From positions 14,037 to 78,036 of the forward strand of contig CAZPCB010000001.1 in assembly GCA_964585065.1 (NCBI GenBank): a stretch of DNA of 64,000 bases, in the 5' to 3' direction. The position numbers were made by a program, and so were the translations under genes. This DNA comes from an uncultured Candidatus Saccharibacteria bacterium (lineage in GTDB: Bacteria; Patescibacteriota; Minisyncoccia; SW-4-49-11). Of this stretch, positions 13,595-46,798 are shown in pieces (the first letter of the stretch is position 1; every line of letters starts with the position of its first letter). The notes under the pieces were generated by a model. It saw only the letters and a list, made by a program, of their open reading frames with translations, was not told the DNA's origin and did not search any database.

Positions 13595-14137
13595 ATGTTA
13601 GAAACCACTACTCGATTTCTATCACCTCGTGAAATAGTACGGCAATTCGATTTAGAAGTTGGAATGAAAATTGCTGATTTTGGATCAGGAGCCGGAGATT
13701 TTTCTATTGCCATTGCTCAATTTATTCAGCCAACTGGAAAGGTGTTTGCAATTGATGTGATGGAATCAGCTCATCAGTCTCTTAGAAGTAAATACAAAAT
13801 TCAAGGTATTACCAATATTGAACTTATTTTGACTAATTTAGAGACTGATAGTGGTTCTACTTTACCAAAAGAATCAGTAGATAGAGTCATGATACATAAT
13901 ATTCTATTTCAAGTAAATGATAAAAAACATTTGCTCAAAGAAGCTCATAAAATATTAAAGGAAAAAGGGAAATTAGTGGTAATAGAATGGGATATTTCAA
14001 GCCCAATAGGACCTCTCAAAGCATCAAGAATTCCTGAGAGAGAATTGGTTTCTCTGATACAAAATAATGGTTTTGAAATTGATCATAAAATTGATGCGGG
14101 AAAATATCATTATGGATATATATTTAAAAAATCATAA
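13595..14137 (+). CDS. class I SAM-dependent methyltransferase
   Basis: Motif I 'KIADFGSGAGDFSIAIA' and an acidic residue after beta-2 ('FAIDVME'). 180 aa. Confidence 0.7.
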   Translation: MLETTTRFLSPREIVRQFDLEVGMKIADFGSGAGDFSIAIAQFIQPTGKVFAIDVMESAHQSLRSKYKIQGITNIELILTNLETDSGSTLPKESVDRVMIHNILFQVNDKKHLLKEAHKILKEKGKLVVIEWDISSPIGPLKASRIPERELVSLIQNNGFEIDHKIDAGKYHYGYIFKKS

Positions 14138-14139
14138 AT

Positions 14140-15486
14140 ATGGCAGGGAATAATTCTCTAGATTCATTTACCAAAAATCGCAAAGTGATTATTATTGCGG
14201 GAGTAGCTATATTAGCTATTGTTATATTGATGCTTGGTAATGCACTTGGATTTAAAATTGGAGGTGAGAAAAAAGTACAAAAAGCAAATTTGGTAGTATG
14301 GGGAGTCTGGGATGAAAGCGAGACAATGACGAAATTGGGAAGTGATTTTCGTAAAACATATCCTAATGTAAGTATAGAATATCGTAAATTCAAGCCACAA
14401 GATTATGAAACAGAATTAGTGAATGCTTTAGCTGAGGGAAGAGGACCAGATATATTTGCAATAGAACATACTTGGCTCGGAAAGCATAAGAATAAATTAG
14501 CTTCAATGCCAGAAGAAATTATGACGCTTAAAGATTATCAAGATCGTTTTGTAGATGTGGTCAATCAAGACTTTATTGACGAGGGTAAAATATATGGATT
14601 TCCCCTATATACCGATACCTTAGCATTATTATATAATAAAGATGCTTTCAATGATGCAGGAATTGCAAATCCACCAGCAACTTGGGAAGAATTACAAAAA
14701 ATTGTCCCGGAATTAACTAAAATTGATCAATTTGGTAATATTAAACAGGCAGGGGTTGCACTTGGTACTGGGGATAATATAAATCGCTCACCAGATATAT
14801 TGATGGCATTAATGCTACAATCGGGAGCTCAATTTACAGACCCTAAGGATACAAGTCAAATTATATTCTCACAAAGTAAGAATGTCAATGGACAAAATAT
14901 AAATCCTGCTCAATTATCCCTGGCCTATTATACTGACTTTGCTAATCCACGAAAGGGAGTATATACCTGGAATTCAACCTTAAATAATTCAATAGATGCT
15001 TTTTATGAAAGAGAAGTAGCTATGATATTTGGATATTCATATCAGGTAGAAGCAATTAAAGTGAAAGCCCCAAGACTTAATTTTGCAGTAGCACCTCTTC
15101 CTCAAGTATCATTAGATTCTGGACTTGCTAACTTTGCAAATTATTGGGGATATGGAGTCAGCGGTCAATCCAAATACCCAAAAGAATCTTTTGCATTTCT
15201 CAAATCAGCCACCGAAAAAGAAAATGCCCAAGATTATTTCTTGAAAACTAAGCGTCCAACAGCCAGAAGAGATTTAGTAGATACTCAATCTCAAGATATA
15301 GATTATGGGGTATTTGTAAAACAAATTTTACAAGCAAAAACTTGGAGACAACCAGATAATAATTCAGTAGATAAAATATTTATTGAGGCTATTAATTCAG
15401 TAAATTCAGGATTGCTTGATTACTCAAAAGCTATTAGTCAAGCTGAATCAGAAATACAAACATTAGCTGATAATGTGAAAAAATGA
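14140..15486 (+). CDS. extracellular solute-binding protein (ABC-type, family 1, sugar-binding-like), N-terminal TM anchor
   Basis: N-terminal TM anchor, then 'LVVWGVWDE...YRKFKPQDYETELVNALAEGRGPDIFAIEHTWLGKH...YGFPLYTDTLALLYNKDAF' typical of SBP_bac_1. Its stop overlaps the next gene's ATG (ATGA). Confidence 0.7.
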   Translation: MAGNNSLDSFTKNRKVIIIAGVAILAIVILMLGNALGFKIGGEKKVQKANLVVWGVWDESETMTKLGSDFRKTYPNVSIEYRKFKPQDYETELVNALAEGRGPDIFAIEHTWLGKHKNKLASMPEEIMTLKDYQDRFVDVVNQDFIDEGKIYGFPLYTDTLALLYNKDAFNDAGIANPPATWEELQKIVPELTKIDQFGNIKQAGVALGTGDNINRSPDILMALMLQSGAQFTDPKDTSQIIFSQSKNVNGQNINPAQLSLAYYTDFANPRKGVYTWNSTLNNSIDAFYEREVAMIFGYSYQVEAIKVKAPRLNFAVAPLPQVSLDSGLANFANYWGYGVSGQSKYPKESFAFLKSATEKENAQDYFLKTKRPTARRDLVDTQSQDIDYGVFVKQILQAKTWRQPDNNSVDKIFIEAINSVNSGLLDYSKAISQAESEIQTLADNVKK

Positions 15487-16820
15487 AATATATAAAGTTC
15501 AGTATAGTTTTTGGTATAATATTCTTAGTAGTTTCATTTTTTAGTATTAACTATACTAATGCACAGAGTGCAGATGCAGCTTGTAGTGCAGGGGCAACAT
15601 CATTAGAGCAAAACTGTACTTTTCAAAATGGAAGCTCTCGTTTAAATGGAAAATGCCAGGTTAAAGATAAAAATAATCCAGGTTTAGGATTAACTTGTCG
15701 TACTAGCTTAGGATCATCCTGCTCAGGTGATACTTGTCAAAATGGATTAGCCTGTATTAATCAGGTTTGTTCCAGTCCAAGAGGGGCTAAAACTCAAGGT
15801 CAATCTTGTTCAGGGAATGGAAATGAATGTATTGCAGGTCTTGAATGTAGAAATTTTATATGTACAAAAGAAGCTGCCATTACTGGTGGAGGGTCTGGGC
15901 AAACTGGAGGTGGTCAAGTCGGTACCCCTGGAGGTGGTCAAGTCGGTACCCCTGGAGGCTCAACAGGGGCAGAAACAGGGCTAGTAAAATGTGGAGTGAG
16001 TAGAGATTGTACCATTTGTGATATATTTATTTTAATTCGAGATGTCTTTAATTTTGCTCTAGGACTACTGGCTTCACTCGCGGTATTAAGCGTTGTGATT
16101 GGGGGAGTATATATACTCACCTCAGCGGGTAATCCAGGAGCAGTAAGTACAGGATATGGCATTATTACCAATGCAGTGATTGGACTATTATTAGTCATGG
16201 CGAGTTTCCTTCTATTCAGCTTTTTATTAGTAGGACTTGGATTCCAAGAACAAAATTTCTCAGCCGTACTTACTTTTCAACCAGGAAAAATATTCGAGGT
16301 AAAATGTGATACTGCTAGTACTTTTAATGATAATGGAGGTAATGGAGGAGGAGCAGCTACAACAAATAGGGGGCCTGTCACATGTAAAAATAGTCAATGT
16401 TTAGCAAAAAACCCTCAGTTAAAAGATCAAATAGAAAAAAGTGCTGCAAAATATGGAATAGAATCAAATCTACTATTAGCTATAATTGATGAAGGTGAGG
16501 GGTGTAATCCTTCTACTACGGCTGCATGTAGTAGATCCTATAGTGATAGTGATTGTTCAGCTGGTTTTACACAATGTACTCCATTAATACGAGCTAAATT
16601 TACCGGAATAAGCGACCCAAAAGCTAGCTTAGATAAGATTAAATCTGATTTATCTACTGATATTGATTGTGGAGCTTGGCTTATTAAACAAAATGCAGGA
16701 GTTTGTCCTCTTTCAGATGTCCGAAAGGTAGCAAGCTGTTATAATGCTGGCTTATCTGGGGCATGTGGTACTCGTAATTATTGTCAGAGAGTTTCAAGTT
16801 ATTATAATGGTTGTAAATAA
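15483..16820 (+). CDS. secreted Cys-rich protein with internal TrbC/VirB2-like pilin hydrophobic hairpin and C-terminal lytic-transglycosylase-like (SLT) domain
   Basis: Signal peptide; CxxGxxC repeats ('CSGDTCQNGLACINQVCS', 'CIAGLECRNFIC'); Gly-rich tandem 'GGGQVGTP' x2. Two-helix hydrophobic segment '...LASLAVLSVVIGGVYILTSAGNPGAVSTGYGIITNAVIGLLLVMASFLL' matches the downstream small pilin-like proteins. C-terminal 'IESNLLLAIIDEGEGCNP...SAGFTQ...CYNAG' resembles SLT motifs (ES, GLMQ-like, AYNAG). Confidence 0.55.
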   Translation: MKYIKFSIVFGIIFLVVSFFSINYTNAQSADAACSAGATSLEQNCTFQNGSSRLNGKCQVKDKNNPGLGLTCRTSLGSSCSGDTCQNGLACINQVCSSPRGAKTQGQSCSGNGNECIAGLECRNFICTKEAAITGGGSGQTGGGQVGTPGGGQVGTPGGSTGAETGLVKCGVSRDCTICDIFILIRDVFNFALGLLASLAVLSVVIGGVYILTSAGNPGAVSTGYGIITNAVIGLLLVMASFLLFSFLLVGLGFQEQNFSAVLTFQPGKIFEVKCDTASTFNDNGGNGGGAATTNRGPVTCKNSQCLAKNPQLKDQIEKSAAKYGIESNLLLAIIDEGEGCNPSTTAACSRSYSDSDCSAGFTQCTPLIRAKFTGISDPKASLDKIKSDLSTDIDCGAWLIKQNAGVCPLSDVRKVASCYNAGLSGACGTRNYCQRVSSYYNGCK

Positions 16821-16833
16821 TTATAGAAATAAT

Positions 16834-17517
16834 ATGAGTTTTAAAAGTTACTTAATATCAATAATAGTATTTTGTATAGCATTGTATCCATTCAAATTTG
16901 TTAGTGCTGATAGTTTAAATATTGATTTATATTTTGATGGTAATAATATAAGATTAGATAATAAAGTAGATAATCCAATTAATTATATTAAGACTGAGGG
17001 TATTGATAAATATCAATCTGGAGGTGTAGATGATAGATATAAGTTAGAAATTGTATCTGATGGTACTGTTACATATTCACAAATTATAACACCTCCACAG
17101 ACTCCATCCCCATTTCAAGTGTTGCTTCCTAATATTAATATCGCAGACAAGGTGAAAGTTATATCTAATAATTCGATTACTTCTGAATTTGATATATCAC
17201 AATATAAGACATGTTTTAGTAATTTGATATGTGAATATGAAAAAGGAGAAAATATTAATTCCTGTCCCTCTGATTGTAATAATGATAATACTAAATTCTC
17301 AGAGGAAACTCAGAAAACTCTTCAAAAAGAAAATGGAATAATTCGGGATGAAGCGGGAACTGTATTATTGTCAACCAATACTCCTACTCCTAATACTGAC
17401 ACAAATTCAGAGACAGAACAATCCAACACATTAGGGAATATTGCTATTTTAATAGGAGGAATAGTATTCCTTGCTGGGGGACTGGGGCTATTTATTTGGA
17501 AATTAAGAAAAAGATGA
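16834..17517 (+). CDS. secreted protein with C-terminal membrane anchor (hypothetical)
   Basis: Signal peptide 'MSFKSYLISIIVFCIALYPFKFVSA', Asn/Thr-rich body, C-terminal TM plus basic tail 'IAILIGGIVFLAGGLGLFIWKLRKR'. Real ATG at 16834. Confidence 0.45.
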   Translation: MSFKSYLISIIVFCIALYPFKFVSADSLNIDLYFDGNNIRLDNKVDNPINYIKTEGIDKYQSGGVDDRYKLEIVSDGTVTYSQIITPPQTPSPFQVLLPNINIADKVKVISNNSITSEFDISQYKTCFSNLICEYEKGENINSCPSDCNNDNTKFSEETQKTLQKENGIIRDEAGTVLLSTNTPTPNTDTNSETEQSNTLGNIAILIGGIVFLAGGLGLFIWKLRKR

Positions 17518-17547: not shown

Positions 17548-18195
17548 ATGAAATTTATTTTATCGACAAGTTTAGCAATTTTATTTGTAATAGGATTTAT
17601 GGGGAATACCTATAATGTCTTTGCTGCTTGTGGGACTGGTCCAGATTGTGCCTCAGGACAGGTATGTGTAACAGTAGATGGTGCTACAAAATGTTTAAAA
17701 AATGAGGCGAATAGTAGTGGTGTTTGTGCGGGGGACTCTTCTATTAAATGTGGATCTGGACAGGCATGTATTCAAAATAAAGCAAAGGAGATTGTATGTG
17801 CTCCTGTACCTAAAGCTAATACATTACAGCCAGCAGCAGATAATACAAAAAATCCAGATAGTGCAGCTAATGGAGGAGGTAACACTTCTGGGGGAGGGGG
17901 ATTATTAGAGGGACTCAATGCTTTTGGTAGTGCAGATTCTGGACTTAATACAGAGGGAACTCTCATTGGGTTTATTGCTAATATTATTCGCTGGATATTA
18001 GGATTACTTGGAACAGTATTCTTTGTAATCATAGTTTTACAAGGGTATCTTTATATGACATCTTCAGGAGATGCGAGTAAAACAGCAGCAGCTACGGGGG
18101 CTATTACTAATGCAGTAATAGGACTACTGATTATTATGGGAGCTTTCCTCATTACTAATTTTGTAACAAGTGCTTTGATTGCCGCGGGCCCTTAA
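17548..18195 (+). CDS. TrbC/VirB2-like pilin-family protein with N-terminal Cys-rich module
   Basis: Signal peptide; 'CGTGPDCASGQVCV...CGSGQACIQ' module; Gly-rich linker. Hydrophobic hairpin 'IIRWILGLLGTVFFVIIVLQGYLYMTSSGDASK...AITNAVIGLLIIMGAFLITNFV'. Confidence 0.55.
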   Translation: MKFILSTSLAILFVIGFMGNTYNVFAACGTGPDCASGQVCVTVDGATKCLKNEANSSGVCAGDSSIKCGSGQACIQNKAKEIVCAPVPKANTLQPAADNTKNPDSAANGGGNTSGGGGLLEGLNAFGSADSGLNTEGTLIGFIANIIRWILGLLGTVFFVIIVLQGYLYMTSSGDASKTAAATGAITNAVIGLLIIMGAFLITNFVTSALIAAGP

Positions 18196-18205
18196 TATCT
18201 CATAT

Positions 18206-18553
18206 ATGATAGAAAAATTTATATCTTATTTCATAATAGCAACAGCGAAAGCCCAGGAGACATCGCCTCCTCCTATATTAGCTATACCTACAGGAACAGG
18301 AGTGGGGGAGCAAGGAGATCTGTTTACTTTTGTGTCAGCTATTGTGCAATGGGGATTGGGATTAATAGGGATAGTATTATTTGTACTTATACTCTTTTCT
18401 GGATTCCAATATGCAACAGCAGGGGGCGACTCTAAAAAAACTGAAGAAGCTATTAGTAGAATTACTTCTGCAGTAATCGGAGTATTCATTGTAGGGGTGG
18501 CTTTTATACTATCCAATGCAGTATTAGGATTTGTTTTTAGTCTAGGATCTTAA
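18206..18553 (+). CDS. TrbC/VirB2-like pilin-family protein (small)
   Basis: 'IVQWGLGLIGIVLFVLILFSGFQYATAGGDSKKTEEAISRITSAVIGVFIVGVAFILSNAV' is the two-helix hairpin with a charged loop. ATG at 18206. Confidence 0.5.
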   Translation: MIEKFISYFIIATAKAQETSPPPILAIPTGTGVGEQGDLFTFVSAIVQWGLGLIGIVLFVLILFSGFQYATAGGDSKKTEEAISRITSAVIGVFIVGVAFILSNAVLGFVFSLGS

Positions 18554-18653
18554 TATACTGACTTATCCACAATAGTATCACTTGCATAGTAATATAAGAT
18601 ATGATAGTATAAAAACATAGAACATATTATTCAATAATTATTAAGATATTCTT

Positions 18654-19037
18654 ATGAATACTTCCCAGATAAAATCAATAGCAACAAGAGCATTATTACC
18701 TGTATTAGTATTAGCTCCTACTTTAGCTGGAGCTGCAACTCCCGTAAAAGATACTAGAGTCATAGGTGAAATACCTCAAGTAGCTGGTACTAATCAATCT
18801 ACTGACCTTGTGGCTACAGTACAAGTGGTTATTCAATGGGCATTAGGATTTATCGGAATTGTAATATTCATTATTTTCTTATTTGCAGGATTTGAATATG
18901 CAACAGCAGGAGGAGATGAAGGAAAAGCAAAAACTGCACAATCTCGAATGATTAACGCGGTAATTGGATTAATTATTATATTCTTTGCCTTTGTAGCTTC
19001 AAATGCAATATTGTCATTCGTATTCCCAGGAAATTAA
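18654..19037 (+). CDS. TrbC/VirB2-like pilin-family protein (small)
   Basis: Signal peptide, then 'VIQWALGFIGIVIFIIFLFAGFEYATAGGDEGKAKTAQSRMINAVIGLIIIFFAFVASNAIL'. Confidence 0.55.
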   Translation: MNTSQIKSIATRALLPVLVLAPTLAGAATPVKDTRVIGEIPQVAGTNQSTDLVATVQVVIQWALGFIGIVIFIIFLFAGFEYATAGGDEGKAKTAQSRMINAVIGLIIIFFAFVASNAILSFVFPGN

Positions 19038-19060
19038 TCAAATTGATAGATACTATGAAA

Positions 19061-19091
19061 CAATAAAAAGGGATATAATCCCTTTTTATTG
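19061..19091 (+). terminator. rho-independent terminator-like hairpin ('caataaaaagggatataatccctttttattg')
   Basis: Perfect 8-bp GC-containing stem with flanking A/T runs, directly after the 18654 gene. Confidence 0.55.
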
Positions 19092-19181
19092 TTTAGAGAA
19101 TACATATTCAAATAATATAGTATTCTTGTCAGATAATAGAATACTTGATATACTTGTAATATATAGAATAGTAAAATAGAT

Positions 19182-19595
19182 ATGAGAGTCTTATTGATTA
19201 TAATAGCTTTATTAATAGGGGGATTTGTATTAAGTTCAAGTATTTCCTTGGCTCAAAGAGCCCCTGATGCTACTCTCCCTGATCCAGGAACAATCCCTAT
19301 TAATACAGGTATATCTGAGGGACCGACCCTCATAGAGACAGTATCTCTTATTATAAGATGGATATTAGGATTTATTGGTATTATAGTATTTGTGATTTTC
19401 TTATTTGCAGGATTTGAATATGCAACAGCAGGAGGAGATCAGAGTAAAGCAGAAAATGCTAGTAAAAGAATGGTAAATGCAATTATAGGACTTATTATTA
19501 TATTCTTTGCCTTTGTAGCATCCAATGCTGTATTGGAATTTGTATTCCCTCCAGATACTACTGCCAATATTAATACCTTATTTAATAGCAATTAA
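19182..19595 (+). CDS. TrbC/VirB2-like pilin-family protein (small)
   Basis: 'IIRWILGFIGIIVFVIFLFAGFEYATAGGDQSKAENASKRMVNAIIGLIIIFFAFVASNAVL'. About 80% identical in the hairpin region to the 18654 product. Confidence 0.55.
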   Translation: MRVLLIIIALLIGGFVLSSSISLAQRAPDATLPDPGTIPINTGISEGPTLIETVSLIIRWILGFIGIIVFVIFLFAGFEYATAGGDQSKAENASKRMVNAIIGLIIIFFAFVASNAVLEFVFPPDTTANINTLFNSN

Positions 19596-19596
19596 T

Positions 19597-20487
19597 ATGA
19601 AATATATTATCTTTTCACTTTTATTAGGTATAGGATTAATAATCCCTCAGAATAGCTTTGCTCAGACAGCTGCTCAAAATACAGCTTGCTCAGGTAAAAA
19701 AAATGGAGATGCATGTACCTATCAAAGAACAGTAACTACTGGAGGAAAAAATACTCCCAGAGGAACTGCAACGCAGACTGAAAGTGGTTTTTGTGATAGG
19801 ACCAATGCAGATAGTATAGCAAAAAATAATCCATTGACTTGTAAAACACTTGATTCTGAGAAGAATGGATGGGAAGATTGTGTTATCATTGGAGATGCTT
19901 GTAAATCTGGTAGCGAATTAGGTGTATGTAGAGCTCCAGGGCCTAAAACAGGACCATGTGACATTAGTAAAAAACCACCAGGTAGTCCGGGGGGAATATC
20001 TCCAGCAAAATGTGGCACATCAACATGTACAGGTGGACAAGTATGTGTGCAGCAAGGTGGAAGCCCAGTTTGTACTAATGATTTAACAAAAAATGGAAAA
20101 TGTGGCACATCAACATGTACAGGTGGGCAAGTATGTGTACAGCAAGGAGGAAGTCCAGTTTGTACTAATGATGCTGCTACACCAAGTACATCAACTAATA
20201 ATGGAACTACTACAGATGCATCATCCCCCCAAAGTGTAGGATTTGTGAACCCTATAAGGTTTAACTCTATTCCTGAGCTTATCGCAGGTATTATTAATGC
20301 CTTATTAGGTATATTAGGAGCGATTACTGTGGCTATTCTAGTTATGTCAGGATTTAAATATATGACAAGTTCTAATCCAGGAGAAGTAGGGCAGGCTTTG
20401 GATGGAATTAGGAATGCAGTTGTGGGACTTATGATAATTATGGGGGCTTTCCTCATAACACAATATATTATCTCGGCTTTGGTTTAA
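19597..20487 (+). CDS. TrbC/VirB2-like pilin-family protein with Cys-rich tandem-repeat N-domain
   Basis: Signal peptide 'MKYIIFSLLLGIGLIIPQNSFA'. 30-aa tandem repeat 'KCGTSTCTGGQVCVQQGGSPVCTND' x2. C-terminal hairpin 'LIAGIINALLGILGAITVAILVMSGFKYMTSSNPGEVGQALDGIRNAVVGLMIIMGAFLITQYII'. ATG at 19597, not the track's 19525. Confidence 0.55.
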   Translation: MKYIIFSLLLGIGLIIPQNSFAQTAAQNTACSGKKNGDACTYQRTVTTGGKNTPRGTATQTESGFCDRTNADSIAKNNPLTCKTLDSEKNGWEDCVIIGDACKSGSELGVCRAPGPKTGPCDISKKPPGSPGGISPAKCGTSTCTGGQVCVQQGGSPVCTNDLTKNGKCGTSTCTGGQVCVQQGGSPVCTNDAATPSTSTNNGTTTDASSPQSVGFVNPIRFNSIPELIAGIINALLGILGAITVAILVMSGFKYMTSSNPGEVGQALDGIRNAVVGLMIIMGAFLITQYIISALV

Positions 20488-20513
20488 ATGTATAAATATT
20501 AATAAAAAGAAAA

Positions 20514-20535
20514 AACCTACCATAGTGGGTAGGTT
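20514..20535. terminator. bidirectional terminator hairpin ('aacctaccatagtgggtaggtt') between convergent genes
   Basis: Perfect 8-bp stem with a 6-nt loop, flanked by A-run and T-run. Lies between the 20487 (+) and 20562 (-) gene ends. Confidence 0.6.
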
Positions 20536-20561
20536 TAGTATTTACTTACTGAGAGCAAATG

Positions 20562-21329
20562 TTACTCTCCCAGTCGGATGACAGGCCATTCAGACTGTCC
20601 TCCTGGTTGGGTGTTCCAGTAAGCATATATTCCTTTAACTTTTTCGGGTGCACCGTAGTCTTGTTCAGAGAAAAAATCGACTTGTAGATTTCCCTCCAAC
20701 TCTTCTTTTAAGGGGAAACATTTGGTTCCAAGTGTTGAGAAGGACTCTCCATTTAGGGTTAATTCCTGAGGGACTCGTGTGGAGCCATCAACTAGTCCTA
20801 GATGGGTGAAGCAAAGAGATTTCCGCCCTTTAGGTACTGAGTAATTTCCATCACCAGTGAGGGTGATTTTCTTACCAGATACCACAACTCTTTCAGTGGA
20901 AGGAGGAGGCTCCTCAACTGGTGGAGCTACCTGCTCGATTGGAGCAGGAGGGTTCAGCTGTGCTTCCCGAATTTGCTTCACTCCGGGGTTGAGTCCGGGG
21001 ATAAAGAAATTCAAGAGAGCGACACCCATCACCAACTTCGATAGGGGTTTGTTACCCCCAGTAAAATGCGATACTCCAGCTCCAATCAAGATTGCGATGA
21101 TCTCGAGAGGGAGTAGAGCTCCTCCAAAGAGAAGCATCCGAGCGAGAAGCCATCCCCCACTTACTCCGAGGAGTAAGTGGGGAAAGGTCCCAGAAGGGAG
21201 GCTCACTCCTTTCCCTTTCCCTGCCGGAGCAGGGGAGGAGGGTGAAGATGTTTTTGAAGAATTACTACTTGAGGTAGTGCTGGATGATGGGTTGGATTGA
21301 TTGTTAAGGCTATAGCGACGATTTGCCAT
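20562..21329 (-). CDS. membrane protein with Ser-rich N-terminus, 2 TM helices and a C-terminal soluble domain (possibly NfeD-like partner of the adjacent SPFH gene); lies in a high-GC island
   Basis: N-terminus 'SNPSSSTTSSSNSSKTSSPSSPAPAGKG', TM segments 'LLLGVSGGWLLARMLLFGGALLPLEIIAILIGAGV', and about 150 aa of soluble C-terminus. Local GC is about 50% against about 33% for the flanking DNA. Start chosen at MANRRY. Confidence 0.45.
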   Translation of the reverse strand: MANRRYSLNNQSNPSSSTTSSSNSSKTSSPSSPAPAGKGKGVSLPSGTFPHLLLGVSGGWLLARMLLFGGALLPLEIIAILIGAGVSHFTGGNKPLSKLVMGVALLNFFIPGLNPGVKQIREAQLNPPAPIEQVAPPVEEPPPSTERVVVSGKKITLTGDGNYSVPKGRKSLCFTHLGLVDGSTRVPQELTLNGESFSTLGTKCFPLKEELEGNLQVDFFSEQDYGAPEKVKGIYAYWNTQPGGQSEWPVIRLGE

Positions 21330-21414
21330 AGTGCCTCGATGAAAAGAACATAATATATATAGCATATTTTAGGTAAAATGTCAATATTTATAGACATAAA
21401 CAATAAAGAAAAAA

Positions 21415-21434
21415 GCCGAGATAATATCTCGGCT
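21415..21434 (-). terminator. terminator hairpin ('gccgagatattatctcggc') followed by a T-run on the minus strand
   Basis: Perfect inverted repeat directly downstream of the SPFH gene stop; on the minus strand it is followed by 'ttttttc'. Confidence 0.6.
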
Positions 21435-21453
21435 CAGGAAGTAGATTATAAGT

Positions 21454-22449
21454 CTACTTTGATTGTAGCATGGCAAGGAGGCCACTAAGCCCACCTTCTG
21501 TGATGAACTTATCTTTATCTCCGACAATTTCCTTCAGAGCAGGTATCTCTACCAATGCTCTGTAGGCTTGTTCATCGGAGATACCGGGATCATTGCTCAA
21601 TGCTTTCACAGCACTGAGCAATCCCTCTGCCTCTGTAACTCGGTTTTTGACCTGCTGCTCAATTACTCGAGCTCGGGCTACCTCGCGATCGAGTGCAGCT
21701 TGTTGCTCCGCTTTCTCTACGGCAGATCTATTCCTAGCTTCATTGACCGTATCGGGAAGAGACAAATCATCGATGTTAATCGACATTAAGTCAACTCCAA
21801 TATTGTCAAGTTTGTCTAGGATTGAGTCACGGATCTTTCTTATATCTTCTGTGGGGTTTTCATCCTTATCAATTCTAGCTCCAACTTGCTTCAGTCCAAG
21901 AGCTTGTAGTAATTGATCAGGAGTAATTTTGGAGACTTGAATCTCATCTAGGGTTTTCCCATCTGCACGCTGAGTGGTATATTCTGCATAAGAATGTTTC
22001 TGCAGAACTAGACGTATGTAAGGGTTCAAAATGCGTTCAGTTGCCTGTAATACATCTTGATCCTCAGCATTATAATGCGCATTGTACACATTATATGCTT
22101 TTTCAGATAGATTCTTTCCCTTGATTTGAGCAATCACACTAACTTTTGCAGTTAATGTGATATCTGGTAGCTCAAGTTCAGCATAATCTCCAGGTGTTGG
22201 AGTGTCATGCCTAAATAGATATACGGGGAATTGATTGGTGCTATATGCTCCTACCAATTTTGCCCCTGGGACAATTATGTGTGGTCCCGGAGTGGCAATT
22301 CTAGAAAGAACTCCAGTTCCTGTATGATTTGGGCGACTGCCCAACCATGAGATTACATGAATCTCATCATCCGGTACAATCCAAATAGGTGGAAGATAAA
22401 AGGGCTCGAATTTAGCCATGAGTTTGTGAATGAGCATGGAACTCCTCAT
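21454..22449 (-). CDS. SPFH/band-7 (stomatin/prohibitin/HflC-like) domain protein
   Basis: N-terminal SPFH-like core ('IWIVPDDEIHVISWLG...PGPHIIVPGAKLV') and a C-terminal 'AEQQAALDREVARARVIEQQ' coiled coil typical of the band-7 family. GC about 50%. Confidence 0.65.
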   Translation of the reverse strand: MRSSMLIHKLMAKFEPFYLPPIWIVPDDEIHVISWLGSRPNHTGTGVLSRIATPGPHIIVPGAKLVGAYSTNQFPVYLFRHDTPTPGDYAELELPDITLTAKVSVIAQIKGKNLSEKAYNVYNAHYNAEDQDVLQATERILNPYIRLVLQKHSYAEYTTQRADGKTLDEIQVSKITPDQLLQALGLKQVGARIDKDENPTEDIRKIRDSILDKLDNIGVDLMSINIDDLSLPDTVNEARNRSAVEKAEQQAALDREVARARVIEQQVKNRVTEAEGLLSAVKALSNDPGISDEQAYRALVEIPALKEIVGDKDKFITEGGLSGLLAMLQSK

Positions 22450-27099: not shown

Positions 27100-29817
27100 T
27101 TAATTAAAGTCTTTTTGGCGGAATATTTTTCTCCACACAAATCGTCGAGTATGAGCTAAGGCAACATAGAATACCGGATAGGCAAATATTACCAATAGGG
27201 TACTAGATGCAAGTCCGAATACCAATGCATAGGCAAGTCCTTCCCAGAATGGGTCAGCAAAGGCTAGAGGAAGTATACCCACAATAGTTGAGAGAGAAGT
27301 AGTAATCAAAGCTCGGAAACGATATTTTATTGCCCCAGAAATTGATTCTCGAATAGATCCCGTTTCTTCTAAGACTGTATTAGAATAGTCGAGTAAGAGA
27401 ATAGTATTATTAACCACAATACCGACTAATCCCGTAATACCAATTAAGGCAAAGAAGCTTAATGGGTTATTGGTCAAATAGAGTCCAAAGAATAATCCAG
27501 GGAATGAGAATGGGACAGCCATTAAGATTAGGAATGGTTGACTCAAGGAATTGAATTGCAATACCAAGAGTATATACATAATGATAATAGCCGCAATAAG
27601 AGCAAATATCGCAGATTGGAAGGAGTCAAGATTTTCTCCTTGTTGTCCTAGATCAAATGCAACTCCATCTTTGGCTAAACTATACTTGGAGCGGAATTCA
27701 TCAGTATCAAATTTTTCTTTCATAGCTGTCTGAGCTTCTAATACCAAATTAGTATTCTCAGGGTCAGACACAGCAACTTGTACTGAGGCATAACGACGTC
27801 CATCTTTTCGAGTAATAGTATCAATATTATTGATGATTACATCTTTTATTTCACCACCATTTAATTTAATATCCTTGGTAAAGTCTCGAATTTCTTTAGT
27901 TGAATTCTCAAGAGTTTTTTGATCATCTGAGAATACTTGGAAAGTAATTTGATAATCATCAGTTGGAGGCCCAGCTCCAGATATACCTGCCTTTACTTTC
28001 AAATCCTTAAGCTTTACATTATCTGCAATCTTATCATTAATCTCGGATACAATAGTAGCTGAAGTTTTCTCTCTTTCTCCAAGAGGGGTAAGAGTAATAT
28101 ACATTAATACTCCATTTGAATCAGCATTAAAGTAGGTAATATCATCAATATACTCAGCATTGGTATCCTTTATGATTTTCTCAATTTCCTTAGTAGTATC
28201 AATAGATTTCTGAATATCACGATTATCCTTTAATATAGAAGTAACCGTAATTTCATTGGTATCTTTGGCTGGAGCAAAAATAGCAAATTTAAGCTTAGTT
28301 GCAGTAAATATTCCTCCACCAATAAGAGCAATTGTTAATACAAATATTATAGTACTACGCCATATATTATTAAGATACCAATTAGTATACTGATATACCT
28401 TAATATTAATCCAATCAATAATACCAGGAACAAAATAGAGAACATTATACAATGCTTTACTAATACCTTTGCGCTTTACTTTAACTCCAGTCTCAGCCTC
28501 ATAATGAGGTAATACCAGATTTGCAAAGAAAGGAATCAGAGTAAGACTTACAATAAGAGATAAAGCTAAAGTCAAGATAACGGTAATAGGAATAAGCTTA
28601 ATAAATTCTCCTAAAGTACCAGATACAAGAGCAATAGGAATAAAGGCTAGAATGGTAGTAACAGTTCCTGATATATCAGCTAGCCCAACAGTATTAATGG
28701 CCTTTATAACCGCTTGTTTACCTCGGTGTCCCGCTTTACGGGCATTATCAATAGCATCAATCACGAGAATGGCATCATCTGCGATTAATCCAATCACTAG
28801 AATAAGACCAAATAAAGTAAGAGTATTAAGAGAATATCCAATTAGATATAATCCTAAAGAAGTAAGTGCAATAGAGACAGGGATGAATACCGCAATAACC
28901 ACAGAAGCCCTCCAGTTCACAATTAATATCATAATAATCATTACTGCAAGAAGCCCAGATATAGCACTTTCCTGGAGTAAAGATAATTGAGCTTTGAGTG
29001 AATTAGAAGCATCTCCACCACCAAATATCACATCATATCCATCTAAATCCCCTGAATCTTTGAGCTTTTGAACTTTATCTTGAATAGCCTGTGAGAATTC
29101 AATAGTACCAACATTAGTGTCTCTGACAGCACCAATAAGAATGGCATCAGTAAATACTAATTTATTATCAGCATTACGATGAGCAGATCTTCCAAATTTA
29201 ATTTGCTCTAAATTAGATTCTCCCGTAATAGGATTCGTTTGAACTTCTTGTAAATCAATTACATTTGTTCGAGTAACTGAATTAACAGCATCTATTTCCT
29301 TTGCAACAAAAGTTGCTTTATCTTGTAATTCTTGAGTAGATTTCCCATTGCCAATCAAACTAAATACCAAATCATTTTCTCCATCAAAAGAAGCAGCATT
29401 AATAGTGACAAAAGAGGATTTTGTATCCTTTGGTAAATTAATTCCATTCACCGCATCTTCTAATAATTTTGCCCCAGCCTTAGAAGTTGTACCTTCTTTG
29501 AACTCGACTGTAATATTAGAGAAATTATCAGCGCTGGTAGAGGTAATAGCTTTAATCTCCTGTATGCTTCCAATAGCCGATTCAATTGGGCCGGTAACAT
29601 CTTTATCTACAAGCCCTTTGTCATTAACAAAATAAGGCGTTTGAATAAGGGCAACCGGAACCTCAATAGTAGGGAAGCCTTCTCGTTTAAGGAATGTGGT
29701 ATAAGCCGCAGTTCCAATTGCAAGAATACCCACTAATAAAAGAACAGTAATTCGCCATTTATTCAGGAAGAATAAGGCAATTTTTGTTAATGCATCTGGT
29801 TTATTGGATGTATCCAT
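27100..29817 (-). CDS. RND-superfamily / MMPL-type exporter membrane protein
   Basis: 905 aa with two blocks of about 6 TM helices each, separated by large extracytoplasmic loops. 'GLIADDAILVIDAIDN' resembles the RND/MMPL TM4 motif. Confidence 0.55.
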   Translation of the reverse strand: MDTSNKPDALTKIALFFLNKWRITVLLLVGILAIGTAAYTTFLKREGFPTIEVPVALIQTPYFVNDKGLVDKDVTGPIESAIGSIQEIKAITSTSADNFSNITVEFKEGTTSKAGAKLLEDAVNGINLPKDTKSSFVTINAASFDGENDLVFSLIGNGKSTQELQDKATFVAKEIDAVNSVTRTNVIDLQEVQTNPITGESNLEQIKFGRSAHRNADNKLVFTDAILIGAVRDTNVGTIEFSQAIQDKVQKLKDSGDLDGYDVIFGGGDASNSLKAQLSLLQESAISGLLAVMIIMILIVNWRASVVIAVFIPVSIALTSLGLYLIGYSLNTLTLFGLILVIGLIADDAILVIDAIDNARKAGHRGKQAVIKAINTVGLADISGTVTTILAFIPIALVSGTLGEFIKLIPITVILTLALSLIVSLTLIPFFANLVLPHYEAETGVKVKRKGISKALYNVLYFVPGIIDWINIKVYQYTNWYLNNIWRSTIIFVLTIALIGGGIFTATKLKFAIFAPAKDTNEITVTSILKDNRDIQKSIDTTKEIEKIIKDTNAEYIDDITYFNADSNGVLMYITLTPLGEREKTSATIVSEINDKIADNVKLKDLKVKAGISGAGPPTDDYQITFQVFSDDQKTLENSTKEIRDFTKDIKLNGGEIKDVIINNIDTITRKDGRRYASVQVAVSDPENTNLVLEAQTAMKEKFDTDEFRSKYSLAKDGVAFDLGQQGENLDSFQSAIFALIAAIIIMYILLVLQFNSLSQPFLILMAVPFSFPGLFFGLYLTNNPLSFFALIGITGLVGIVVNNTILLLDYSNTVLEETGSIRESISGAIKYRFRALITTSLSTIVGILPLAFADPFWEGLAYALVFGLASSTLLVIFAYPVFYVALAHTRRFVWRKIFRQKDFN

Positions 29818-43415: not shown

Positions 43416-44024
43416 ATGAAAACAAAACGAGATATATTACTTCGCAAATCTCTCCATCTAGGACTTATACTTCCTTTTGCTGTGTATTGGTATATATCTG
43501 CTCAGATTTTTATCGATGCAGAGTTATATGCTAAGAGCTTTTTAGCTGTCTTTGTAATAGGATTCTTGATATATGAATATTTGCGACTAGATACTCGATT
43601 TTGGGTTCCATTTGCGAGTTTAGTAAAACCCAAGGAGCAAAATACCAATGTAGATGGGTTGAATTTGGTTTTAGCTGCTATTGTGGCGACAGCTCTTTTT
43701 GATCCGAGAGTTTCTCTCACCGCAATATTAATTGCCATTATTGGGGATACATTTTCTACAATTGGAGGAATTTATGGTACAATGAGAGTATTCCCAAATA
43801 CAGAAAATAAAACTACTTGGGAAGGTATATTATTAGCTTTAATTGCAAATTTTGCAATAGCAAGTAGCATATGGGGATTTGGTATTATTCCACTTATATT
43901 AGCTCTAGTGGGAGTTATTATTGAAACCTTTGCCTCTAAGCTCGATGATAATTTGGCAATTCCCTTGGGAGTGGGATTCGTAGGACAAGTGATTTGGCTT
44001 ATAGTACAATATTATCCAAAATAA
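43416..44024 (+). CDS. polytopic membrane protein, CTP-transferase-1 / dolichol-phytol kinase-like (tentative)
   Basis: 6-7 TM helices. 'KSLHLGL', 'IGDTFSTIGGIYG' and 'KTTWEGIL' resemble the CDS/DGK1/SEC59 family motifs. Confidence 0.35.
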   Translation: MKTKRDILLRKSLHLGLILPFAVYWYISAQIFIDAELYAKSFLAVFVIGFLIYEYLRLDTRFWVPFASLVKPKEQNTNVDGLNLVLAAIVATALFDPRVSLTAILIAIIGDTFSTIGGIYGTMRVFPNTENKTTWEGILLALIANFAIASSIWGFGIIPLILALVGVIIETFASKLDDNLAIPLGVGFVGQVIWLIVQYYPK

Positions 44025-44035
44025 ATAATAATACC

Positions 44036-45238
44036 ATGTTTGGTAAAAAAACAGCATCTGAACCTCTTATCATAGATATCTCTGAGAATAGAGTGACGGT
44101 AATTGATTATACTGTTGATGACAAGACAGGTAATACTTTGATTCATGGTATTGGTCAAACTCAATTACCTTTTGGAGTAGTGAATACCAATACTATTGAA
44201 CAAGAAACAGTATTAATACAAGCAATAGAAAATGCTCGGCTTGAAGCTGAGACAAGTAATGATGAGATAAAAACAGGAACAATATTGGGGGTTTCAGGAC
44301 CATTGGTAGAAATTAAAGACCGTATTGCTGAGATAAATCGTGATAAACCTAACAAAAGTATTAAGCCAAAAGAATGGATTAATACCATTGATGATATATA
44401 TGTTCAATTTGATGCAGAGTCTTATGCCACTTCTCAGGGACATAAGCTTCCATTATCTTTGGTACAGATTTCATTAAATGATATTAGGCTAGACGGTGTT
44501 GAGACTTTATCCCCAATTGATGAAAAGGCTCAAACGATAACTTTAGAGACACTGAACACCTATATTCCAACTTCCTATAAACAATCATTAGTCAATATAG
44601 AAAAAAGTATTGGATTAACTATTGAAGGAGTATATCAGCATGGATATGCCGTAGGGCAGCTTATATTAGATTATAATAGAAGTAGAGATATAGCGGTTAT
44701 ATTAGTAGATATTCGATTTGGACATACTACTATTAGTATTGTTCAGAATCAAAAAATCAAATATATACAGTCATTTAGTATGGGGAGTCATAGTTTTACT
44801 CAAGCTATTGCCAATACCTTCCAAATCACTATTGATGAGGCAGAAACTGTTCGTCAGGAATATAGCCGATTACAATTACCAAGAGATATGTCTCGTCGCA
44901 TTACGGATGCTCTTGAACCAGAAATATCTCTTTGGTTGCAGGGAATAATCTTGAGCCTACAGGAAGCTCAACTAGAAAATCTCCCACCATATGTATTATT
45001 ATATGGCGAGGGAGCTCAATTATTAGGTATAAAAGAGGCTCTTGAATATAGTAATTGGTATAAATCACTTAATAGTACTGTTAAGCCAGGAGTGTCAATT
45101 CTTACACCAAAGCAATTCCCTCATATTATTGATATGACAAGTAAAATAGATAATGCCCGATATATTGATATTCTCGGCCTTATACATGCCGCCAATATTC
45201 CTACAGATATTCATCTTCCATATCGTTTAAGTGAATAA
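44036..45238 (+). CDS. actin-like ATPase of the PilM/FtsA family (putative pilus-assembly or divisome protein)
   Basis: 'PLIIDISENRVTVIDY...' (phosphate-1-like), 'IAVILVDIRFGHTTISIV...ITIDEAETVRQEY' (FtsA/PilM second domain), 'YVLLYGEGAQLLGIKEAL' (phosphate-2-like). No ftsZ nearby. Followed by membrane proteins. Confidence 0.45.
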   Translation: MFGKKTASEPLIIDISENRVTVIDYTVDDKTGNTLIHGIGQTQLPFGVVNTNTIEQETVLIQAIENARLEAETSNDEIKTGTILGVSGPLVEIKDRIAEINRDKPNKSIKPKEWINTIDDIYVQFDAESYATSQGHKLPLSLVQISLNDIRLDGVETLSPIDEKAQTITLETLNTYIPTSYKQSLVNIEKSIGLTIEGVYQHGYAVGQLILDYNRSRDIAVILVDIRFGHTTISIVQNQKIKYIQSFSMGSHSFTQAIANTFQITIDEAETVRQEYSRLQLPRDMSRRITDALEPEISLWLQGIILSLQEAQLENLPPYVLLYGEGAQLLGIKEALEYSNWYKSLNSTVKPGVSILTPKQFPHIIDMTSKIDNARYIDILGLIHAANIPTDIHLPYRLSE

Positions 45239-45244
45239 ATCACT

Positions 45245-46798
45245 ATGAAAAACACAACTTCAAAACCACTTATATTAAATCCAAAAGACGGTATTTCAGA
45301 TATTGTATATCAAATTAAAAGTGATGCAGTAAAAGGCGGAAAAGTTTTGATTTATATACCAGATAATATGGATATATTATATAATCCTGTAAATAGGGGA
45401 TTATTTGTACATACCATTAAGCAATTAATTGCTCAATATGATATAGAATTATTTAGTGCAGATAATGAATTAGTATCTCTATTAACTACAAGCAATATAC
45501 CTATTACTACTTCTGATACTATTCCTAATACTACATCACAAAGGACAGGTATAGAAAATGACCCCTATACTGATTTTTTTGGATATCAATTGAATCAAAA
45601 AACCCAAAACTCTATATCTGAATCAAGTACTGAAGCAGTATTTCATCCAGAACCTGCCAATCCACAACCATTACCAAAGAAAAAATCAGATGGACCTTCC
45701 TGGAAATTTTTATTGGCAGGAATGATTGTCGTGACAATAATTCTTGTGGCCGTAGCAGCTATACTTATTCCAAGAGCAGATATTACTATTACTACAAAAC
45801 TGGAATCATTATCTAAAGATTTTGATATTACTTTTGATCCCGCTATTACTGATATTAGTGTTGAGAATAAAGCCATCCCATCCGCTACAGATACTATTAG
45901 TGCTTCTGTAGAAGGAACATATGAAGGAACTGGCTCACAGGCTGGGGGTACAAAAGCAAATGGTACTATTACCATTAAAAATGAAACTTCTGCCTCACAA
46001 TCATTGGTTGCAAACACTCGATTTCTTTCAGCAAAAGGAAAACAATTTCGTCTTGTGGAAGCTGTCACTGTTCCTGCAAAAGGCTCTGTAGAAGGGAAAA
46101 TTATAGCTGATAATCCAGGAGAAGAATATAATATACCAGCAGGAAAATTAACTATTCCAGGATTTGATGATAATCCAACTAAATTAGCAGCCATTTATGG
46201 AGAATTAGGATTGGCCATTAATAATGGAGCTAGTGAAGATGGAATTATTGTTACAGAACAAGATATAGAAAAGGCCAGATTAGATTTACAAAAAAAGCTT
46301 ACCGAGGTGGTAAATAAGCAAGTTAGTGAAAGACAAGATACTAGAGCCTTGGTGATACAGACTAAACTCAATGATATACAATATACTGGGTTACCAAATG
46401 TTGGAGATAGAGTAAGAAGCTTTACGGTAAAAGCCTCGGGTAATCTGCAGGGAGTATTCTATAAAGAAGAAGATTTAGACAAATTAATAAAATCTTTATT
46501 GGCCTCACAAGTGATTGATTCAAGAGAATTGGGATCTGATATTAAAATTAACTTTGACCCTCCACAGGAATTTCCAAATAAACAAGCAGCAAAAGCAAGA
46601 GTATATGTAGACTATTCTCTACAACCAAAATTTGATGAGGGGGATATATCTCGCAATATAAGGCTTAAAACCATATCTCAAGCACAGGATTATCTCAAGG
46701 GTCTCGATAATGTAGACTCAGCGGATCTTAAATTAATTCCAGGATTTAGTCCAGTATTGCCGGCTCTTACATCTCGTATTCGTATTATCATCAAATAA
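45245..46798 (+). CDS. bitopic membrane protein (cytoplasmic about 150 aa, 1 TM, large extracytoplasmic domain); hypothetical
   Basis: TM segment 'WKFLLAGMIVVTIILVAVAAILI'. Thr/Ser-rich. Adjacent to the PilM-like gene. Confidence 0.4.
   Translation: MKNTTSKPLILNPKDGISDIVYQIKSDAVKGGKVLIYIPDNMDILYNPVNRGLFVHTIKQLIAQYDIELFSADNELVSLLTTSNIPITTSDTIPNTTSQRTGIENDPYTDFFGYQLNQKTQNSISESSTEAVFHPEPANPQPLPKKKSDGPSWKFLLAGMIVVTIILVAVAAILIPRADITITTKLESLSKDFDITFDPAITDISVENKAIPSATDTISASVEGTYEGTGSQAGGTKANGTITIKNETSASQSLVANTRFLSAKGKQFRLVEAVTVPAKGSVEGKIIADNPGEEYNIPAGKLTIPGFDDNPTKLAAIYGELGLAINNGASEDGIIVTEQDIEKARLDLQKKLTEVVNKQVSERQDTRALVIQTKLNDIQYTGLPNVGDRVRSFTVKASGNLQGVFYKEEDLDKLIKSLLASQVIDSRELGSDIKINFDPPQEFPNKQAAKARVYVDYSLQPKFDEGDISRNIRLKTISQAQDYLKGLDNVDSADLKLIPGFSPVLPALTSRIRIIIK

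Follow-up and report, generated by a model that had tools for sequence, protein, structure and literature searches.

The type IV secretion systems (T4SSs) of Patescibacteria are MPF_FATA-like and include arrays of 2-11 genes encoding VirB2-like pilins (PMC12102498). In Southlakia the pilin array is essential, and its function has been described as unknown (PMC10633639; PMC12857230; PMC11665869). Most VirB2-bearing Patescibacteria genomes lack a detectable VirB1 (PMC12102498; PMC12857230), and other glycosidases have been suggested as filling its role (PMC12102498; PMC12857230; PMC10633639). Surface lytic transglycosylases have also been proposed to compromise host envelopes (PMC11665869). Here we describe a gene at positions 15483-16820 of a 64,000-nucleotide stretch of DNA (the window; positions 14,037 to 78,036 of contig CAZPCB010000001.1, GenBank assembly GCA_964585065.1, from an uncultured Candidatus Saccharibacteria bacterium). 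The gene lies on the forward strand, as do the solute-binding protein gene, the gene for protein X and the pilin array described below, begins with ATG and encodes a protein of 445 amino acids (aa) in which a predicted pilin hairpin is followed by a predicted lysozyme-like domain. We judge it reasonably probable that this fusion belongs to the PF18895 (VirB2/TrbC-like) pilin family as a decorated member and serves as the pilin-borne, wall-cutting subunit of a T4SS-like pilus apparatus. The initial annotation of the window had remarked that VirB1 and VirB2 are normally separate proteins, and the literature agrees (PMC12102498; PMC12857230).

VirB1-type enzymes (A. tumefaciens VirB1 and P19/TraL; Pfam SLT, GH23) have the same fold and the same SLT motifs II and III as the tail of the fusion, and their presumed job, the opening of peptidoglycan for a T4SS-related surface structure, is alike. 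However, VirB1 stands alone as a soluble protein of the periplasm and has the canonical E-S dyad, whereas the fusion carries its enzyme behind a pilin module. The fusion further differs from VirB1 in its Cys-rich, disulfide-capable build, in an invariant Glu that is shifted by one residue, and in the presence of other lysozyme classes among its relatives. The processed form VirB1* reportedly promotes T-pilus formation and interacts with VirB2 and VirB5 (Zupan et al. 2007). By analogy, a covalent VirB2-VirB1-like fusion would mirror this VirB1*-VirB2 partnership.

Other described systems join a wall hydrolase to different carriers. The monoderm hydrolases PrgK (pCF10), TraG (pIP501), CwlT (ICEBs1) and Tn916-like Orf14/CTn1-Orf17 are anchored by a single N-terminal transmembrane (TM) helix and usually pair an SLT or muramidase domain with a CHAP/NlpC-P60 or LytM domain; none is known to be carried on a VirB2-like hairpin. 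Monoderm conjugation systems are described as being without VirB2 altogether (PMC12102498; PMC12857230). The PF18895 arrays of Southlakia epibionticum and Nanosynbacter TM7x belong to the same hairpin family as the fusion, but their described members are small, free-standing pilins, to which the fusion adds a C-terminal enzyme domain. FlgJ (flagellar rod cap and muramidase) and EtgA-EscI (type III secretion) have carriers and secretion systems unrelated to those of the fusion, and FlgJ and EtgA are not known to be polymorphic between strains, unlike the fusion tail. V. cholerae VgrG3, Tse3/Tsi3, CdiA-CT and Rhs-CT use type VI secretion spikes or type V secretion filaments as carriers, whereas the carrier here is a T4SS-type pilin. 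In addition, the tails of the fusion clade all belong to the lysozyme superfamily, in contrast to the diverse toxins of polymorphic systems, and no co-varying immunity gene was found. VirB1/VirB1*, PrgK, TraG, CwlT, FlgJ, EtgA-EscI and VgrG3 may nevertheless be taken, by analogy, as precedents for the pairing of a hydrolase with a structural subunit.

The conserved pilin module of the fusion (residues 165-284, positions 15975-16334) was delimited by its Pfam match, the hairpin predicted by AlphaFold2 (AF2) and the identity among homologues. Pfam T4SS_pilin (PF18895) matched residues 184-248 with E=9e-6 and 26.1 bits, the gathering cut-off being 26.6 bits. P0010, P0017, P0046 and P0039, whose cores are 79-94% identical to that of the fusion, passed this cut-off with 27.2-31.0 bits, and other fusion orthologues scored 20-26 bits. 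Two hydropathy peaks were found at about residues 180-212 and 225-253, and AF2 predicted a hairpin of helices 177-213 and 218-251 joined by the 4-residue loop SAGN (predicted local distance difference test, pLDDT, 70-81). By both measures, the PF18895 layout of a leader peptide and two long hydrophobic helices with a short loop is present in the fusion. The order of the module is GLVKCG..CTICD, helix 1, loop, helix 2 and GFQ...FEVKCD..FND, with its four conserved Cys (170, 176, 179 and 275) outside the membrane. Free-standing small pilins carry the same flanks, GLVPCG...CTxCD before helix 1 and a Cys after helix 2, and share with the fusion core the IGG and GNP around the loop. Because the GLVxCG...CTxCD flank and the trailing Cys are those of free-standing pilins, these data point to a complete PF18895 pilin module, and not a generic anchor, in the hydrophobic segment. 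The PF18895 match, the AF2 hairpin and the shared Cys signature bear out the initial annotation, which had seen in the fusion the same two-helix hairpin as in the small pilins; in place of the ordinary TM anchor that it had named as the alternative, a PF18895 module with the Cys flanks of the family was found.

A profile of the core retrieved 13,085 cluster representatives at E<=1e-3, and 37 of the 38 that were scanned matched PF18895. The tie between PF18895 and the characterised VirB2/TrbC pilins appears to be indirect, running through the family only. Pfam gave no TrbC (PF04956) match for the fusion at E<=1, and E=0.13-0.44 for neighbouring pilins; among the 38 scanned PF18895 relatives, TrbC matched three (best E=3e-6). 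The narrow core profile had no match in the PDB.

The tail of the fusion (residues 306-445, positions 16398-16817) is a Cys-rich lysozyme-like domain of a GH23/SLT-like subtype that we call B1. An AF2 model of residues 296-445 had a pLDDT of 83.7 and a predicted template modelling score of 0.83, and the top 50 Foldseek neighbours of this model were all lysozyme-superfamily enzymes (50/50), including family-1 lytic transglycosylases, Tse3, phiKZ gp144 and one GH23-type chitinase. A search of the PDB with the single tail sequence returned noise only. With a 15-sequence family profile, the PDB matches were lysozyme-superfamily chains only (hen egg-white lysozyme, 0.016; goose lysozyme, 0.021; EtgA, 0.049). 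Pfam SLT (PF01464) matched the tail with E=0.048 and 13.7 bits, the gathering cut-off being 21.3 bits. Profile-profile alignment placed S359-Q364 (SAGFTQ, positions 16557-16574) as the equivalent of GLMQ and C419-G423 (CYNAG, positions 16737-16751) as the equivalent of AYNAG; these canonical SLT motifs II and III are invariant in the B1 subfamily as S-x-G-[FY]-x-Q and C-Y-N-x-G. Collectively, the models and profiles predict that the tail has a lysozyme-like fold of the family-1 lytic transglycosylase type.

The residues of motif I depart from the canonical pattern. In the profile-profile alignment the column of the canonical catalytic Glu holds G338, within the sequence E337-G338-E339. The only invariant acidic residue at motif I is E339 (GEGCN; codon at positions 16497-16499), which lies one position past the canonical Glu in 12/12 B1 members. 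This candidate suggests that the catalytic residue is probably displaced by one position.

The C-terminal SLT-like domain of the initial annotation thus stands, on the AF2 fold, the 50/50 Foldseek neighbours and the PDB profile matches, and the absence of a lysozyme fold or of a Glu that it had set as grounds for rejection was not observed: the fold is predicted, and E339 and motifs II and III are invariant. Other parts of its account were upheld in part. The suggested comparison with PF01464 gave lysozyme-superfamily matches with the family profile, but Pfam SLT itself stayed under its cut-off at 13.7 bits. The proposed alignment of a catalytic Glu yielded the invariant E339, but with G338 in the canonical column. 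SAGFTQ and CYNAG align to motifs II and III as proposed, but 'ES' (E327-S328) was rejected as the catalytic dyad, since it aligns with the canonical 'v-D-p' position ahead of the catalytic helix.

The remaining parts of the protein, for which the public protein collection holds an identical 445-aa entry (P0001, encoded on a 298.9-kb NCBI contig), lie before and between these two domains. An exact-sequence look-up of the protein gave no result, and its genomic context was taken from homologues. A hydrophobic N-terminal leader ending in AQ is common to all fusion homologues. Hydropathy and an AF2 helix at residues 6-20 point to a signal peptide at residues 1-27 (positions 15483-15563), presumably cleaved between TNAQ and S. 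It is followed by an extracytoplasmic Cys-rich head (residues 28-131, positions 15564-15875) with 12 Cys, delimited by sequence and AF2, which contains two CxnCx5Cx4C repeats, CSGDTCQNGLACINQVC (C80-C96) and CSGNGNECIAGLECRNFIC (C109-C127), and small β-hairpins in the AF2 prediction. The head is variable or missing among fusion orthologues. Prediction places all of the Cys residues of the fusion (28/28) in segments outside the membrane. A Gly-rich disordered linker (residues 132-164, positions 15876-15974; pLDDT <50) contains a tandem repeat identified by Tandem Repeats Finder (TRF) at positions 15904-15958 (period 24 bp, 2.3 copies, 100% match), which encodes GGGQVGTP twice; the near-identical relative P0002 has one copy of this 24-bp repeat, one fewer than the gene described here. 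The two Cys-rich repeats and the Gly-rich tandem repeat reported in the initial annotation were therefore both located. Between the pilin hairpin and the tail domain lies a disordered stretch of about 20-50 residues, including a G/N/T-rich flexible linker (residues 285-305, positions 16335-16397; TRF, pLDDT <50) at the recombination junction described below. The full-length AF2 model had a pLDDT of 59.5, with low confidence outside the hairpin and the tail, and is uninformative on domain arrangement and on the conserved segment 254-284. In P0015 and P0017, a globular head of ~230 aa (residues about 30-260) replaces the Cys-rich head; this alternative head matches no Pfam family and, by eye, shows faintly amidase-like motifs.

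Relatives of the fusion share its core but differ in their tails. The homologue search yielded 57 core-sharing relatives, with cores that were 75-97% identical save in five deeper-branching members. Their tails formed four classes, A-D, that were not linked by BLAST, and class B splits into B1 and B2, making five. Class A (31 members) shows a weak likeness to lambda lysozyme, carries the Joint Genome Institute (JGI) name 'muramidase (phage lysozyme)' and has the motif YEG...YGRFQ. Class B (16 members) comprises B1, the type of the fusion, and B2, with the canonical motifs TEN...GILQLN. Class C (6 members) has an SLT_2-like AGAGQF motif, and class D (4 members) matches SLT_3 and SLT above their cut-offs, with the motif AES...GLWQIN. 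The SLT cut-off was passed by 2/9 B2 members, and the B2 member P0056 scored 22.7 bits. Comparison with hhalign gave probabilities of 97% for B1-B2 and 79% for C-B1. PF18895 and PF18896 match jointly on P0046, and the fusion architecture is thus implicit in databases. Searches of the protein database with the C-terminal domain, as a single sequence or as a profile, returned only P0005 even though further relatives are known, a result of the word-index limit that is uninformative on distribution.

DNA comparisons placed the differences between tails at one position. The window and locus L003 are 92% identical up to position 16351 (residue ~290, past the core) and unrelated from there until 17355, and L005 (class A) and L007 (class C) break at the same core/tail junction. 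A direct repeat of 9 bp x 2 detected by TRF at positions 16331-16348 (TAATGGAGG, NGGNGG) sits at this junction and may be the recombination joint. In P0006, P0022, P0035 and P0047, tails of the B1, B2, A and C types follow identical 73-aa heads. Between L001 and the window, the B1 tail is 84%, the core 80% and the product of the upstream solute-binding protein gene 72% identical; since the tail is more alike than the core and the solute-binding protein, lateral exchange of tails is indicated. Gene order is constant across the related loci, and the tail differences are therefore allelic. Across these loci, conservation of the core (78-97%) exceeds that of the small pilins (58-99%) but falls below that of gyrA (89-99%), and the heads, the tails, the N-domain of the downstream protein and a reverse-strand gene at 20562-21365 are hypervariable. 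Collectively, these sequence comparisons indicate that five lysozyme-superfamily tail classes are exchanged on one pilin core by recombination at the junction.

Two contigs, L016 and L019, of a single metagenome-assembled genome (MAG) bin (GCA_023264145.1, isolate BSH.5) both contain the junction between the solute-binding protein gene and the fusion. Their solute-binding protein genes are 94% identical, but their heads differ and one tail is of class D and the other of class A, which indicates co-existing strains or mixed binning.

Immediately downstream of the fusion lies a gene for a protein (X; positions 16834-17517) with a signal peptide, a variable N-domain, a T/P/N linker and a C-terminal TM anchor. 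X has no Pfam family and contains the invariant motif CNxNxxCEYEKGExxNxCxSDC and the motif FSEETxxTLQxxNGxIRDEAG; it is also found in L001 (11091-11768), L005 (7472-8194), L003 (9283-10437) and further loci. Its N-terminal part is replaced together with the fusion tail in near-isogenic strains, and in class C loci its N-domain is swapped for an unrelated region of about 300 aa.

One alternative is that the tail is a dead lysozyme-fold module that binds peptidoglycan or another glycan, which would make the fusion an adhesin-type decorated pilin recognising a partner wall. Such a module would account for the Gly at the canonical Glu position in 12/12 B1 members and for an SLT score under the cut-off, and the heads and X also look like variable surface-recognition modules. 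However, the invariant Glu lies only one residue away in GEGCN, motifs II and III are invariant, and the interchangeable tails of classes B2, D and A carry canonical catalytic motifs, which argues that the tail position is used for an enzyme. A purely binding function thus appears unlikely.

The exchange of tails also raises the question of an interbacterial weapon, with the fusion as a polymorphic toxin and X as its cognate immunity protein, as in CdiA-CT/CdiI or Tse3/Tsi3. Consistent with such a system, the N-terminal part is conserved and the enzymatic C-terminal tail varies, with recombining modules, the DNA replaced in near-isogenic strains spans the tail and the N-domain of the next gene, and Tse3 is among the structural neighbours of the tail. 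However, X did not co-vary with tail class in the nine loci compared: A-type and D-type loci have X proteins that are 60-75% identical, two B1 loci with tails 84% identical have X proteins only 51% identical, and a differing N-domain of X occurs in class C only. On this absence of co-variation, a strict toxin/immunity pair was ruled out, and we regard a toxin of this kind as very unlikely.

The fusion locus is surrounded in the window by the housekeeping genes gatB, gyrA, rpsL, rpsG and fusA. The order gatB, metallo-β-lactamase-fold protein, gyrA, methyltransferase, solute-binding protein, fusion, X, five pilins, two reverse-strand genes and rpsL was present in every related locus fetched, as far as each extends. 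These syntenic loci include 13 GTDB species representatives, all of them Parcubacteria/Paceibacteria-type MAGs, and for those whose isolate names tell where they were sampled, the origin is fresh water, for example Lake Mendota or Lake Zurich. The pilin array is syntenic in all loci that reach it, with the fusion as the first of six tandem PF18895 genes. The fusion is the first pilin-family gene of a conserved Paceibacteria operon that comprises the methyltransferase, the solute-binding protein, the fusion, the anchored protein X and the five pilins.

This setting bears on the possibility that the fusion is a housekeeping autolysin, in which the hairpin would be a membrane anchor only and the enzyme, with no tie to a pilus or T4SS, would remodel the cell's own wall during growth or division. 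A chromosomal place among gatB, gyrA, rpsL and fusA would suit such an enzyme, as would a disordered linker (residues 253-305) that could let the anchored domain reach its own wall, and no T4SS ATPase was found among the ten open reading frames (ORFs) of the window scanned with Pfam. However, the supposed anchor is an entire pilin module, including the flanking Cys signature of the family, its core conservation (78-97%) is like that of other decorated pilin hairpins in the array, and in every case the fusion gene heads a pilin array. Nor would a constant substrate predict swaps of lysozyme class between strains whose flanking genes are 92-99% identical. A housekeeping autolysin is, on balance, a rather unlikely explanation.

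A prophage-like lysis module, with the hairpin as holin and the tail as endolysin, is highly improbable. A two-TM hairpin joined to a muramidase does resemble a holin and endolysin, and some relatives bear the JGI name cited above. However, the fusion combines a cleavable leader with a large extracytoplasmic head, it occupies the same chromosomal place among housekeeping genes in 13 species, no phage genes adjoin it, the hairpin matches pilin and not holin families, and a tblastn search against 50,697 phage records gave no match.

We favour the reading in which the fusion is a pilin-borne, wall-cutting subunit. Once Sec had inserted the protein and its leader had been removed, the head and the enzyme domain would both face outward, in the topology of VirB2. 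The pilin module would bring the enzyme to the site of T4SS-type pilin assembly, where the fusion could either stay in the membrane at the base or form a minor or tip subunit of the filament. The glycosidase would cut glycan strands there, allowing the structure to pass a peptidoglycan layer. Given the hypervariability of the tail and of the other modules that the locus exposes, the wall of a partner (host) cell appears somewhat more likely as the target than does space-making directed purely at the cell itself; repeated tail replacement in near-identical strains, together with the disulfide-rich build, suggests an external and variable target.

Several points weigh against this reading. On the side of the pilin, the fusion falls 0.5 bit short of the PF18895 cut-off, and a broad 53-sequence pilin profile matched the A. 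tumefaciens VirB2 chains only insignificantly (E=3.2 and 8.2). A homopolymeric shaft seems incompatible with subunits that each carry two bulky domains. The PF18895 pilus is called only 'potential' in a review (PMC12857230), and the papers searched report no polymerisation of a PF18895 protein. On the side of the enzyme, the tail is far under the SLT cut-off, Gly occupies the canonical Glu column with the invariant Glu shifted by one residue, and with this shift the B1 tail may be of altered or no activity. VirB4, VirD4 and VirB6 were not found among the ten large ORFs of the 64-kb window that were scanned with Pfam, most other ORFs being unscanned, so that the linkage to a T4SS comes through the pilin family only. 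Finally, VirB1 homologues associated with virB4 have been reported in Paceibacteria (PMC12102498), which may thus already own a space-making enzyme.

A bolder version of the favoured reading can be offered only tentatively. The fusion might be a minor or tip pilus subunit that acts as a muralytic 'drill head' at the wall of a host or prey cell, with lysozyme-class switching as an arms-race adaptation, the solute-binding protein capturing muropeptide sugars, and VirB2-like pilins serving as general wall-enzyme carriers in epibionts. Under such an arms race, the variable heads and variable X would join tail switching as adaptation, and selection would come from modifications of the host peptidoglycan or from family-specific inhibitors of lysozymes or transglycosylases.

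Enzyme-like tails recur among other PF18895 proteins. Of the 150 best cluster representatives from the core profile, 58 were small pilins, 44 had C-terminal extensions of 120 aa or more, 41 had several hairpins in one chain and 7 had long N-terminal extensions. Among the 38 representatives scanned with Pfam, SLT tails were found in three and DPBB_1 (RlpA-like) in one, and our own tail models detected class A, B or C tails in 11 of the nearest pilin representatives. Two weak SLT_3 matches and one weak Peptidase_M15 match (P0190, 2.7e-4) were found among further pilin tails. By eye, other pilin tails had suggested a LAS/M15-type peptidase; this was not confirmed, as Pfam gave no match for 7/10 further tails and a profile of seven 'SCHYGG..AVD..NHVH' tails matched Hedgehog-N only (E=0.65). 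No mention of a pilin-hydrolase fusion was found in the literature searched on Patescibacteria pilin arrays. The architecture that the initial annotation called unusual is thus undescribed in that literature, but it recurs in Patescibacteria beyond this genome. The multi-hairpin proteins (41/150) are tandem-fused 'poly-pilins' with 2-8 hairpins per chain and up to 933 aa; examples are P0068, P0071, P0074, P0077 and P0110.

Upstream of the fusion, the gene at positions 14140-15486 encodes a membrane-anchored, carbohydrate-type solute-binding protein (Pfam SBP_bac_1, E=6e-32; MalE, GanS and NgcE-like in NCBIfam). Its stop codon overlaps the start of the fusion (ATGA), the junction reading ...AAAAAATGAAATAT. 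The two genes adjoin in all syntenic loci that reach upstream of the fusion, and the 4-nt ATGA overlap is present in those with called genes, except L008. The ORF list and Pfam gave no permease or ATPase gene adjoining the solute-binding protein gene. The coupling to an orphan solute-binding protein in the initial annotation accordingly holds: the overlap was read directly, and no transporter gene adjoins.

Downstream of X, five further PF18895 pilin genes occupy positions 17548-20487 (17548-18195, about 18206-18553, 18654-19037, 19182-19595 and about 19597-20487; Pfam E=1e-9 to 8e-9; NCBIfam Mbov_0395 pilin-like). The first and last of these have Cys-rich N-terminal extensions. In the fifth gene, a tandem repeat of 90 bp x 1.8 (positions 20007-20172, 94% match) duplicates the Cys module KCGTSTCTGGQVCVQQGGSPVCTND; similar small Cys modules are found on the N-termini of the first and fifth pilins and on the fusion head. 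A consensus scan placed a putative bidirectional terminator-like hairpin at 20513-20536, closing the array.

Several other features of the window were observed. Its GC content is 33-39%, with one 2-kb block (20001-22000) at 43%. The hypervariable reverse-strand gene at 20562-21365 encodes a 267-aa membrane protein with an S/P-rich N-terminus and 24-63% identity between loci; it lies in this block, where local GC is 0.43 vs about 0.35 elsewhere, and adjoins an SPFH/Band_7 gene at 21454-22449. A 905-aa RND/AcrB-family transporter (27100-29817, reverse strand; E=6e-94) is unexpected for a monoderm-type reduced genome. A PilM/FtsA-like protein (43994-45238) is followed by a 517-aa protein (45245-46798) with a Baseplate_J-like match (E=7e-6), the pair (43994-46798) lying in a stretch otherwise made up of housekeeping genes, with alaS on one side and tRNA genes on the other.

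T4SS-like systems and VirB2-like pilin arrays occur widely across Patescibacteria, and in the one species tested they are essential. VirB2-like pilins and T4SS-associated wall hydrolases are known kinds of protein; it is their fusion that the literature searched does not describe, and its cassette-like polymorphism is its most striking feature. The architecture is a natural 'Rosetta stone' for a pilin-hydrolase partnership, and the tails form a set of compact, disulfide-rich, predicted muramidases for biochemistry. The exchange of lysozyme class at a fixed junction in near-identical freshwater strains suggests a variable target, either the host wall or host inhibitors; if the target is variable, tail alleles would be host-range markers for lake time series. 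Should the tentative 'drill head' prove true, the 'missing VirB1' would be supplied and the essential pilin arrays would gain a concrete mechanism. A pilin with its own wall-cutting enzyme would provide a concrete, testable link between pilin arrays and the breaching of peptidoglycan.

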